Below are positions 31,267-34,246 of a stretch of DNA of 64,000 bases, one piece after another. Each line of letters starts with the position of its first letter. Positions within the stretch are counted from its first letter, which is position 1. The DNA comes from an uncultured Hyphomicrobiales bacterium (lineage in GTDB: Bacteria > Pseudomonadota > Alphaproteobacteria > Rhizobiales > Xanthobacteraceae): NCBI GenBank assembly GCA_964453555.1, contig CAYVPC010000001.1, positions 2,340 to 66,339 of the forward strand. Direction: 5' to 3'. The notes under the pieces are model-generated. The model had not been told where the DNA came from. It did no database searches and saw nothing but the letters and a program-made list of their open reading frames with translations. Made by a program: the position numbers and the translations under genes.

Positions 31267-32232
31267 ATGGCCGACGACACTGAAGATCGCAGAACACTCG
31301 CAGAAGGCGCTGCGCGTCAACTAGCCAACGCCACAAAAACACGGGCGCAATGGGGCGGCATAACACCGCGCTGGCTCGTCCCCTTGCTGCAGTGGACTCC
31401 GGTCGAGGCCGGCATTTTTCGTTTGAATCGGGTCAAGGAAACGCGGGGCGCGACCGCCGCCTCGTCGGCGGACGTCGAATGCAGCCCGCCGCGGGATCGC
31501 GATCGCGCGCTGCCGGAAACGTTTGTGGACTACGAGGAGCAGCCGCGTGAATACTTTCTCAACGCGGTGACAACGGTTCTCGACGTGCAGACGCGCGTCT
31601 CCGACCTCTACAGCCATCCGTTCGACCAGATCCAGGAGCAGCTTCGCCTTTTGATCGAAAAGGTCAAAGAGCGCCAGGAGGGCGAGCTCATCAACAATCC
31701 CGAATACGGCTTGCTGGCTAACACCGCGCCGTCGATGAAGATCAAAACGCGCAGCGGTCCGCCGACGCCGGACGATCTTGATGAGCTCATCGCCAAAGTT
31801 TGGAAAGAGCCCGCCTTCTTTCTCGCCCATCCACGCACCATCGCTGCGTTCGGCCGCGAGTGCACAAGGCGCGGTGTCCCGCCGCCGACGGTCAACATGT
31901 TCGGTTCGCCGTTTCTGACCTGGCGCGGTCTTCCGCTGGTGCCGTCCGACAAGGTGCCTTTCGAAGAGAAGAAGAAAATCAGCAAAACCAAGATTCTGCT
32001 GTTGCGCACCGGAGAGAAGAGGCAGGGTGTCGTTGGATTGTTCCAGCCCGGCGTTCCCGGTGAAGTGCAGCCGAGCCTCTCGGTCCGCTTCATGGGCATC
32101 AACCACAAGGCGATCGCCTCCTACTTGATCTCGCTTTATTGCTCGCTGGCGGTCCTGACCGAGGACGCACTTGGCGTTCTCGAGGATGTCGAGGTCGGCA
32201 GGTATCCCGAATACGATCATAAATATGCCTGA
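31267..32232 (+). CDS. Family 2A encapsulin shell protein (SrpI-like, HK97 fold, no cNMP-binding domain)
   Basis: 321 aa. The blocks [129 protein letters not shown] and [17 protein letters not shown] match my memory of Synechococcus SrpI. The stop overlaps the desulfurase start. Confidence 0.88.
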   Translation: [321 protein letters not shown]

Positions 32233-34246
32233 TATTCACCCCGCGGCGGATCCGGGCATGGCATCGGCGGCGGCCGCGGATACCGGCCTGCCCGAGGCGA
32301 GCCAACTCGAGCAGATGGCTGCTTCGCTCGCAGCCGCGCACGATCCCACGTTGATTGCCAGGATGGCGAACGCATTGTTCATCGCGTTGCCAAACAAGCC
32401 TGTGCCGGGGCTGGGGGCGGCGTTGTCCTCGGCGCCGGTGTTTTCGGTCGAGCCGGCCTATGCTTCAATTCCAGGCGCGCCGTCCGCCGGTATGCCTCTA
32501 ACACCCAATAACAATCCCGGACTCCCCGCGGTGCCGTGGCCCGGCATGGGAGCGGCTCAGCCATCGACTCCGGGCTTCGCGACTGAACCGCGACTATACC
32601 GAGGTGTAGCGGGGCGGCCGGCGCCGGCTACGACCGGGGCGGGGAACTCATCCGTTCCTTCTTACGCATCACCGTCCGACGCCGCCGCTGCTCCGCCCGT
32701 ACAAAATGGCTTTGTCCGCGAGCCGGACTTCAGCGCGTTACCTGCGGAGCTTGCGAGCGCTCTGTCGTTTGCTCCGCACTTTAACGATGCCGCGGCTCCG
32801 TACGGGGAAATCAGTTCATTGTATGGGCCGGCGGCCGCGCCGCCCAAACCCGACCATACCTATTACTTCTTGAACTATGCGCAGCCGGTCGCCGGCCCGG
32901 CGGCCGCCACCCGGAAGACGACGTTCGATCCTTCGGTGCAATCCGTCGATCTGGGTTCTTTGGCCTCGCAACATCGGCCCGAGATCGCCGCAGCATCGAT
33001 CTCGGAGGTTCGCGCCTTCGATCCGCACGTTTTTCGCCGCGATTTCCCGATCCTCGACCAGACCGTCAATGGCCGCCCCCTGGTTTGGCTCGATAACGGC
33101 GCGACGACGCAGAAGCCGCAGACAGTGATCGACCGCCTGGTCCGTTTCTACCAATTCGAGAACTCGAATATTCATCGCGCCGCCCACACGCTGGCGGCGC
33201 GATCGACCGATGCCTATGAATCGGCGCGCGAGAAAGTGCGCCGCTTCATCAATGCGCCGAGCACGCGTGACGTCATTTTCGTGCGCGGCGCCACCGAAGG
33301 CATCAATCTTGTCGCTCAGGCATGGGGACGCAGAAATGTCGGCAAGGATGACGAGATCGTCGTCACCCATCTCGAGCATCACGCCAACATCGTGCCGTGG
33401 CAGCAGCTCGCCGTCGAGAAGGGCGCCAGGCTGTTGGTCGTCCCGGTGGACGACAGCGGTCGGGTTTTGCTCGACGAGTACGAGAAATTGCTCAGCCCGC
33501 GAACGCGGATCGTCGCGTTCGCGCATGTTTCGAATGCGCTCGGTACCGTCACCGCGGCGCAGGAAATGACGGCGATGGCGCATCGGCACGGCGCCAAGGT
33601 GCTGATCGACGGCGCCCAGTCGATTTCACATATGCCGATTGATGTGCAGGCTCTCGATGCAGATTTTTTTGTTTTTTCGGGCCACAAGATGTTTGCGCCG
33701 ACTGGCATCGGCGTCGTCTTCGGCAGGGCCGGTGAACTCGAAGCCATGCCGCCGTGGCAGGGCGGCGGCAACATGATTGCCGACGTGATGTTCGAAAAAA
33801 CGATCTTTCAAGGCGTCCCGGAGCGTTTCGAAGCGGGGACGGGAAACATTGCCGATGCGGTCGGTCTCGGCGCGGCCATCGACTACCTGAACGGTATCGG
33901 CATGAGCAATATCGCCGCCTATGAGCATGAGCTCCTGGCCTATGCCCTGCAGGGACTGTCAACGGTGCCGGGTCTCAGGCTGATCGGCTCGCCACGCGAA
34001 AGGGCCAGCGTCATCTCTTTTGTGCTCGATGAGTGCAAGACCGAGGACGTCGGCAAGGCGCTCGACCGCGAAGGCATCGCTGTGCGTGCCGGCCATCATT
34101 GCGCCCAGCCGATCCTCCGGCGTTTCGGCGTCGAAGCGACAGTGCGTCCTTCATTGGCGCTCTATAACACGACGGAAGACATCGACGCGCTGATCGATGC
34201 GTTGCTGCGCATTCAAAGCGGACGCGGTCACGCGCTCTATCGCTAA
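32225..34246 (+). CDS. Cysteine desulfurase (SufS/CsdA group II) with a ~260-aa disordered N-terminal cargo-loading domain; predicted encapsulin cargo
   Basis: Start at the internal ATG 32225 (MPDIHP...), 8 nt inside the shell gene. Residues 1-~262 are Pro/Ala/Gly/Ser-rich and low complexity. The C-terminal domain has WLDNGATTQKP, HHANIVPWQ, SGHKMFAPTGIG (PLP Lys) and RAGHHCAQP (catalytic Cys). Confidence 0.9.
   Translation: MPDIHPAADPGMASAAAADTGLPEASQLEQMAASLAAAHDPTLIARMANALFIALPNKPVPGLGAALSSAPVFSVEPAYASIPGAPSAGMPLTPNNNPGLPAVPWPGMGAAQPSTPGFATEPRLYRGVAGRPAPATTGAGNSSVPSYASPSDAAAAPPVQNGFVREPDFSALPAELASALSFAPHFNDAAAPYGEISSLYGPAAAPPKPDHTYYFLNYAQPVAGPAAATRKTTFDPSVQSVDLGSLASQHRPEIAAASISEVRAFDPHVFRRDFPILDQTVNGRPLVWLDNGATTQKPQTVIDRLVRFYQFENSNIHRAAHTLAARSTDAYESAREKVRRFINAPSTRDVIFVRGATEGINLVAQAWGRRNVGKDDEIVVTHLEHHANIVPWQQLAVEKGARLLVVPVDDSGRVLLDEYEKLLSPRTRIVAFAHVSNALGTVTAAQEMTAMAHRHGAKVLIDGAQSISHMPIDVQALDADFFVFSGHKMFAPTGIGVVFGRAGELEAMPPWQGGGNMIADVMFEKTIFQGVPERFEAGTGNIADAVGLGAAIDYLNGIGMSNIAAYEHELLAYALQGLSTVPGLRLIGSPRERASVISFVLDECKTEDVGKALDREGIAVRAGHHCAQPILRRFGVEATVRPSLALYNTTEDIDALIDALLRIQSGRGHALYR
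32351..32380 (+). other. LIARMANALF motif in the desulfurase N-terminal domain (candidate shell-targeting motif)
   Basis: Resembles the LARLANEFF-type motif reported in the disordered N-terminus of Family 2A cargo desulfurases (from memory). It is the only well-ordered-looking hydrophobic patch near the N-terminus. Confidence 0.5.

Follow-up and report, generated by a model that had tools for sequence, protein, structure and literature searches.

In a catalogue of 1462 desulfurase encapsulin operons from 11 phyla, four types are distinguished by their make-up of rhodanese, acetyltransferase, shell and desulfurase genes (Benisch et al., PMC10836720), and experiments on the class have been made in three species. 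Here we describe one more alphaproteobacterial example, a Family 2A encapsulin shell gene followed by a gene for a cysteine desulfurase (CyD), at positions 31267 to 34246 of a 64,000-nucleotide stretch of DNA from an uncultured Hyphomicrobiales bacterium (contig CAYVPC010000001.1). This whole 64-kb stretch is referred to as the window, and all coordinates are positions within it. In Synechococcus elongatus PCC 7942, the shell protein SrpI (6X8M, 6X8T) is loaded with CyD through the enzyme's N-terminal domain; the system is induced by sulfur starvation and shows a sevenfold rate enhancement (Nichols et al. 2021, PMC8049743). The desulfurase encapsulin of Acinetobacter baumannii 118362 (8T6R) forms a 24-nm T=1 shell with a 6-Å five-fold pore and stores crystalline elemental sulfur (S0) (Benisch, Andreas & Giessen 2024, PMC10836720). 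In the Mycobacterium smegmatis Mmp1/Enc-CD system (8WOL, 8WON, 8KG1), loading likewise proceeds via a long disordered N-terminus. That system differs from the present one in its actinobacterial host; a decameric "cymbal" assembly has also been reported for it, and protection from oxidation has been emphasised (Tang et al. 2024, PMC11659603). In the characterised systems, encapsulation raises the activity and stability of the enzyme.

The region examined here encodes, with a probability of about 0.93, a Family 2A nanocompartment of the desulfurase encapsulin kind, with the mechanism and the role in sulfur limitation proposed below. The identification rests on equivalog scores, identity to solved shells, cargo-loading motifs, synteny and the surrounding sulfur genes, and nothing was found that contradicts it. 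As a standard orthologue, the locus belongs to a system that has been catalogued and structurally solved and that can be annotated automatically, and in this sense it is already known. The families to which both proteins belong, the arrangement of their domains, the motifs and catalytic residues that they carry and the synteny of their genes were observed as described in the following paragraphs. The features of the shell and cargo genes are as follows.

31267..32232, plus strand: Family 2A encapsulin shell gene (321 amino acids, 36 kDa; matches to NF041162, PF19307 and PDB entries)
32225..34246, plus strand: encapsulin cargo cysteine desulfurase CyD (673 amino acids if translated from ATG 32225, 71 kDa; matches to NF041166, TIGR01979 and PF00266)
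32225..33034, plus strand: N-terminal cargo-loading domain of CyD (about 270 amino acids, rich in Ala, Pro, Ser and Gly)
32351..32380, plus strand: loading motif 1, LIARMANALF (CyD residues 43–52), counterpart of the published "LARLANEFFS"
32858..32878, plus strand: loading motif 2, TYYFLNY (CyD residues 212–218), counterpart of the published "AASPYYFLDG"
33035..34246, plus strand: SufS-type (class II) cysteine desulfurase catalytic domain dependent on pyridoxal 5'-phosphate (PLP) (about residues 264–666, from alignments to 8KG1 and Escherichia coli SufS/CsdB)

The shell open reading frame (ORF) ends with the TGA stop at 32230..32232 in both the six-frame ORF list and a direct reading of the DNA, and a Shine-Dalgarno-like GAGAGG motif lies 8 nucleotides 5' of its ATG. 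An earlier note on this DNA, made from the sequence alone, had reported the 321-residue ORF and quoted six peptide blocks from it, all of which are present at the expected places. The NCBIfam equivalog model NF041162 (encap_f2a, "family 2A encapsulin nanocompartment shell protein") scores 507 bits (E-value 1.2e-152) against a curated cutoff of 380 bits, with shell residues 11–316 aligned to model positions 1–295 of 295. The Pfam family PF19307 ("Type 2A encapsulin shell protein SrpI-like") covers residues 63–312 with 354 bits. Four T=1 shells of known structure (8T6R, 6X8M/6X8T, 9KSL and 8WOL) are matched over the full length (E-values 1e-137 to 1e-121), and the identity to experimentally solved 2A shells is 66–71%. 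Specifically, as counted from printed alignments, the shell is 71% identical to that of A. baumannii (8T6R; E-value 1.6e-137, shell residues 8–320 aligned with 9–309) and 69% identical to SrpI (6X8M; E-value 1.4e-131). The mycobacterial matches, with an E-value of 1e-121, are the MMP-I shells 9KSL and 8WOL and include those of M. smegmatis and M. leprae. The assignment of the ORF to the SrpI-type Family 2A shells in the earlier note is borne out by these scores and identities, and the profile hidden Markov model comparison with Family 2 encapsulins that it had proposed, once run, gave a significant SrpI-type match.

The homology to SrpI extends over the full length of the protein, including the N-arm and the extended C-terminus. 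Relative to 8T6R, the shell contains an 8-residue insertion at about residues 62–75 and a 4-residue insertion (EEKKKISK) at about residues 233–240. The RRGVPP motif of the five-fold pore, at shell residues 201–206, has the same sequence as SrpI residues 192–197 and is invariant in 18 homologues; the pore residues R192, G194 and P196 of SrpI are thus conserved as R201, G203 and P205.

The Family 2B encapsulins (9BHU, 9BIX, 9BJE) share a homologous HK97 core with this shell, and the 2B structures match it with E-values of 1e-83 to 1e-93. They differ, however, in carrying a cyclic nucleotide monophosphate (cNMP)-binding insertion and a terpene cyclase or polyprenyl transferase cargo, whereas the present shell lacks the insertion and is paired with a desulfurase. 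The 2B model NF041163 aligns shell residues 64–312 with its positions 206–450 only and exceeds its own cutoff through the shared C-terminal core, to which the matches of the 2B structures are likewise confined. Pfam detects no cNMP_binding domain in the 321-residue shell, in which the N-arm and the core are only about 25 residues apart. From the partial match to the 2B model and the missing domain, subtype 2A rather than 2B is confirmed; the missing domain was the reason that the earlier note had given.

The protein encoded downstream had been described as a SufS-type desulfurase with a long N-terminal extension and as the cargo, and this view agrees with the profile matches, the loading motifs and the synteny of shell and cargo genes. 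CyD matches NF041166 f2_encap_cargo1 ([quoted passage not shown]) over residues 32–663 with 825 bits (E-value 6e-248; cutoff 800 bits) and the sufS model TIGR01979 with 565 bits (cutoff 475), while PF00266 spans residues 287–656. Among PDB entries it matches best the encapsulin-associated desulfurase of M. smegmatis, solved as a crystal structure (8KG1; E-value 4.7e-177), which is also the closest solved structure to the catalytic domain, followed by E. coli SufS/CsdB. The three desulfurase motifs named in the earlier note were located at residues 385–392 (HHANIVPW, with His385/His386), 485–488 (SGHK) and 623–629 (GHHCAQP). The active site is intact: the alignments to 8KG1 and E. coli SufS show conservation of K488 (the PLP lysine), C626 (the catalytic cysteine) and HHANIVPW.

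As in A. baumannii, in which a disordered N-terminal loading domain precedes the SufS-type domain, the first approximately 270 residues of CyD form a separate segment (about 225 residues in A. baumannii). No Pfam domain was found in this segment, in which 58 Ala, 40 Pro, 25 Ser and 19 Gly residues make up much of the 270, and it is presumed to be disordered. Two motifs, LARLANEFFS and AASPYYFLDG, are common to SrpI-associated desulfurases (Nichols et al., PMC8049743), and both have counterparts here. A strict pattern recovered the first in the N-terminal domains of 39 out of 73 related cargo proteins. In A. baumannii the corresponding segment is a discontiguous cargo-loading domain that touches hydrophobic patches of the shell close to its A-domains and three-fold pores (Benisch et al., PMC10836720).

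For comparison with related loci, one genome per species was scanned; more than 570 relatives were returned, and the best 80 loci were examined, which span Alphaproteobacteria, Gammaproteobacteria, Myxococcota and Acidobacteriota. The cargo gene lies 3' of the shell gene in all 80 loci wherever the contig reaches far enough. The cargo N-terminal domain is weakly conserved among them and ranges from about 157 to 454 residues. The nearest relatives, with 89–91% identity, belong to Xanthobacteraceae, Bradyrhizobium, Rhodopseudomonas and Afipia genomes (the shell of Rhodopseudomonas palustris is 90% identical), and they suggest that the host is an uncultured bacterium from this group. A homologue of the serine O-acetyltransferase gene cysE is found near the shell–cargo pair in most of the loci, in varying position and orientation, and a rhodanese gene is found in the flanks of 6 of the 80.

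These data also bear on a different origin of the shell ORF, namely as the leftover major capsid protein gene of a degraded prophage that came to lie beside an unrelated SufS gene by chance. A PHROG scan of the shell gave a weak match to the phage major head protein family phrog_212 (E-value 0.0012), and some IMG records of homologues carry the name "Phage capsid-like protein". The PHROG similarity is marginal beside the 507 bits of the encapsulin equivalog and is what would be expected of the ancient kinship among HK97-fold proteins, not of a prophage remnant. Moreover, no recognisable phage-related gene occurs among the flanking ORFs scanned, which are sulfur-metabolism genes; the pairing of shell and cargo is kept across phyla, and the cargo bears an encapsulin-specific loading domain. 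A prophage origin is effectively refuted.

Four in-frame start codons are candidates for CyD (TTG 32171, ATG 32186, ATG 32225 and ATG 32258), and they place its start anywhere from 61 nucleotides inside the shell gene to 25–26 nucleotides past the shell stop. Translation from ATG 32225..32227 gives an overlap of 8 nucleotides with the shell gene (ATGCCTGA; AAATATGCCTGA) and a product of 673 amino acids ending at 34246, which is exactly the gene call of the Joint Genome Institute (JGI). The public NCBI/ENA gene call (P0136), on a 68-kb contig that is apparently the same one, instead starts at ATG 32258, 25 nucleotides past the shell stop, and gives 662 amino acids and no overlap. If the latter is correct, the two genes are adjacent without being coupled by an overlap, as might be suspected from the lack of a good Shine-Dalgarno sequence at ATG 32225 and from the gaps of 46–92 nucleotides between shell and cargo genes in more distant relatives (L014, L018, L019). 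However, ATG 32258 is likewise without an obvious Shine-Dalgarno sequence. A start at the same −7 position (ATG or GTG, any codon, then the stop) recurs in four related loci (L001, with GTG, L015, L033 and L037) although their shell C-termini differ, and in further close relatives an ATG overlaps the shell gene at −13 or −22. We regard the non-overlapping arrangement as a serious but somewhat doubtful alternative. The earlier note had described the two genes as translationally coupled through ATG 32225 and the TGA at 32230..32232. The 8-nucleotide overlap is a real feature of the sequence, but since the actual start of CyD is ambiguous, coupling by overlap is plausible and not established.

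The working of the compartment can be proposed from the characterised homologues. T=1 assembly of 60 subunits into particles of about 24 nm has been demonstrated in homologues that are 66–71% identical to the present shell (PMC8049743, PMC10836720, PMC11659603), and sixty of the 36-kDa HK97-fold subunits would self-assemble into such an icosahedral cage here. CyD, as a dimer of 71-kDa chains, would be drawn into the lumen by docking of LIARMANALF and TYYFLNY in its disordered N-terminal domain on the inner surface of the shell. L-cysteine would enter via the small five-fold pores lined by RRGVPP, and the PLP enzyme (K488, C626) would turn it into alanine, the sulfur being abstracted via a persulfide on C626. 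This sulfur may then remain in the lumen, out of reach of cytosolic reductants and thiols, in the form of persulfide, polysulfide or elemental sulfur. By its likeness to the A. baumannii system, the present one may be expected to have the 24-nm T=1 shell and to store elemental sulfur. The encapsulin locus is most likely one module of the response of the host to sulfur limitation. A role in sulfur metabolism had been put forward in the earlier note, and the equivalog models, the identity to solved shells, the loading motifs and the synteny lend it support as a prediction from sequence.

Several observations set limits to this interpretation. Where SrpI has Arg304, which contributes positive charge on the outside of the pore, the present shell has Asp317, so the electrostatics of the pore may differ. 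The AlphaFold2 model of the shell has a mean predicted local distance difference test score (pLDDT) of 44 and a predicted template modelling score (pTM) of 0.42, from a shallow alignment of 18 homologues, none of them less than 80% identical; the HK97-type capsid fold is therefore predicted by homology, from the identity of about 70% to cryo-electron microscopy structures, and the model was not used. The start codon of the cargo is ambiguous among the four candidates. An encapsulin-type rhodanese was not found in the 64-kb window with the rhodanese of a related locus (L056) as the probe (best tblastn E-value 0.07); the operon type here is thus one with the acetyltransferase present and the rhodanese absent from the window. 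Rhodanese is the proposed sulfur-remobilising partner and occurs in about half of the operons (PMC10836720). Finally, knockouts in S. elongatus were without phenotype (PMC8049743), and for this reason the physiological role of the class is unsettled, with storage, protection of the enzyme and control over cysteine catabolism as the candidates.

With the same identity of the locus, the main role could accordingly be a different one, namely to protect and stabilise an oxidation-sensitive desulfurase, or to throttle cysteine breakdown and uncontrolled sulfide release under sulfur limitation or oxidative stress. In M. smegmatis the shell is reported to guard the desulfurase against oxidation and to keep sulfide from being released (PMC11659603), and in the SrpI study sequestration was raised as a limit on cysteine degradation, and the knockouts had no phenotype under sulfur starvation (PMC8049743). 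That a rhodanese for sulfur remobilisation was not found in the window would also fit. On the other hand, the A. baumannii homologue accumulates crystalline S0 both in vivo and in vitro (PMC10836720). Storage and protection are compatible with each other, and the two cannot be told apart from sequence data. We consider protection or throttling as the main role possible but rather unlikely. Sulfur storage as part of a sulfur-limitation response is the reading that we prefer; induction by sulfur starvation has been reported for both the S. elongatus and the A. baumannii systems, and the local gene context fits it.

The same locus is present on a 445-kb JGI metagenome contig (Ga0455669_00000029, sample 3300042090) with 1 mismatch in 18,022 bases. 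The mismatch, at 32106, is nonsynonymous: codon 280 of the shell encodes His here and Gln in the JGI contig, and most homologues have Arg or His. This difference explains why a look-up of contigs by the exact sequence of the shell protein gave no match. In JGI/IMG, members of the 90%-identity cluster to which the shell belongs are labelled "hypothetical protein" or "Phage capsid-like protein", and the cargo "cysteine desulfurase/selenocysteine lyase". The earlier claim that this system would escape routine annotation is thus true for IMG and pipelines of its style, which still name such shells "hypothetical protein". It is false for the Prokaryotic Genome Annotation Pipeline of NCBI, whose models NF041162 and NF041166 recognise and name both proteins. 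In RefSeq, proteins of this cluster from Rhodopseudomonas palustris already bear the name "family 2A encapsulin nanocompartment shell protein".

The shell–cargo pair lies among further genes of sulfur metabolism, listed here in the order of their distance from it, first downstream and then upstream.

34413..35372, plus strand: serine O-acetyltransferase (CysE/EpsC type, 319 amino acids), the "AT" accessory gene of desulfurase-encapsulin operons (matches to TIGR01172, NF041874 and Hexapep)
35414..36202, plus strand: TauE/SafE-family sulfite/sulfonate anion exporter (262 amino acids from ATG 35414; PF01925, E-value 1.3e-45)
29374–30204, minus strand: cysH, reductase of adenosine 5'-phosphosulfate (APS) or 3'-phosphoadenosine 5'-phosphosulfate (PAPS), divergent from the shell gene (NCBIfam)
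28369–29343, minus strand: cysD, divergent from the shell gene (NCBIfam)
26798–28372, minus strand: cysN fused to DUF2061, divergent from the shell gene (NCBIfam and Pfam)
26327..26797, plus strand: Rrf2-family transcriptional regulator (156 amino acids; TIGR00738, 119 bits against a cutoff of 73)
20632..24627, minus strand: complete ssuB-ssuC-ssuD-ssuA cluster for alkanesulfonate transport and monooxygenation (NCBIfam)

The cysE gene follows CyD on the same strand after 166 nucleotides (TIGR01172, E-value 4e-49; NF041874, 161 bits against a cutoff of 150), and a serine O-acetyltransferase is likewise associated with the A. baumannii system. The gene order differs: rhodanese, acetyltransferase, shell and desulfurase in A. 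baumannii, against shell, desulfurase, acetyltransferase and TauE here. The tauE gene begins 41 nucleotides past cysE, is called by JGI with the same 262 amino acids and is probably co-transcribed; a terminator-like hairpin is located at 36179–36195.

On the other side, the cysHDN set (26798..30204) matches NF002537, NF009214 and TIGR02034, all above their cutoffs. CysH resembles the APS-reductase type (TIGR02055, 227 bits; CC…CxxC motif), in which case an APS kinase would be unnecessary. At the C-terminus of CysN, residues 466–517 form a DUF2061 "predicted membrane protein" domain, which replaces the CysC kinase of many fusions. The Rrf2 ORF ends exactly at the end of the convergent cysN ORF. 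Its product is most similar, among specific models, to CymR (83 bits) and IscR (78 bits), both under the cutoff, and is a candidate local regulator that may sense cysteine or Fe-S. In the ssu cluster, SsuD scores 671 and 633 bits with NF001939 and TIGR03565, respectively, and SsuC 351 bits with NF008470 (cutoff 347); SsuA belongs to the TIGR01728 family, and an SsuB-like ATPase is present. Genes of the ssu class are regulated by sulfur starvation.

A sulfur-gene-rich neighbourhood is shared with SrpI, which is however plasmid-encoded among srp genes, whereas the present pair faces cysHDN and is near ssuABCD. The ssuBCDA genes upstream and a broken ssuE-like gene downstream frame the encapsulin operon in a sulfur-scavenging island of about 17 kb. 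The neighbourhood is coherent as a sulfur-acquisition island and fits a role in sulfur starvation. The embedding among genes for APS reduction and alkanesulfonate utilisation adds modest circumstantial support to the view that desulfurase encapsulins are tied to sulfur limitation, which is the open physiological question for the class. Within 8 kb, cysHDN was found in none of the 80 related loci, and a TauE homologue in one; since neither is conserved, the arrangement is local and not a feature of the family.

The ssuE-like gene itself encodes a flavin mononucleotide (FMN) reductase dependent on reduced nicotinamide adenine dinucleotide phosphate (PF03358; 36886–37306, minus strand) and is split over two frames, with 37103–37306 aligned to profile positions 2–52 and 36886–37212 to positions 58–133. 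The same frameshift is present in an independent JGI contig (L081), which indicates that the gene is probably a genuine pseudogene and not the product of a sequencing error.

A gap of 957 bp (30310–31266) separates cysH from the shell gene. Its ORFs have no Pfam match, and a comparison with Rfam gave no family at the gathering score and a single chance-level match to an insect long non-coding RNA (E-value 0.04). No sigma-70-like promoter was found in the gap by consensus, its repeats are short and at chance level, and neither its DNA nor its peptides are conserved across the 80 related loci. The gap does contain an ORF of 46 amino acids with a hydrophobic N-terminus (30735–30875, plus strand; MRFLQHIAVFSAFAIIAAVVALG…), which JGI calls as a gene and which is preceded immediately 5' by a strong Shine-Dalgarno-like run, GGGGGAGGG; this ORF, too, is not conserved in the 80 loci. 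It is conceivable that the encapsulin operon, cysH-cysD-cysN(DUF2061) and ssuABCD form one divergent sulfur-limitation regulon, in which the adjacent CymR/IscR-like Rrf2 protein acts through this unusually long (about 1 kb), lineage-specific stretch between the genes and the position of TauE couples the compartment to the export of sulfur oxyanions. We hold this scheme to be distinctly improbable; if true, it would be a regulatory link of a kind undescribed for desulfurase encapsulins.

Two further observations concern the remainder of the window. No transfer RNA (tRNA) reaches the Rfam gathering score anywhere in it, and a 90-nucleotide tRNA-Cys(GCA) that ARAGORN reports at 12968–13057 (minus strand), within an oppositely oriented ORF of 367 amino acids, is probably a false positive. 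An orphan ORF of about 560 amino acids (24426–26129, minus strand) lies between ssuA and the Rrf2 gene, has no match in Pfam, NCBIfam or PHROG and is called by JGI as a gene of 558 amino acids.

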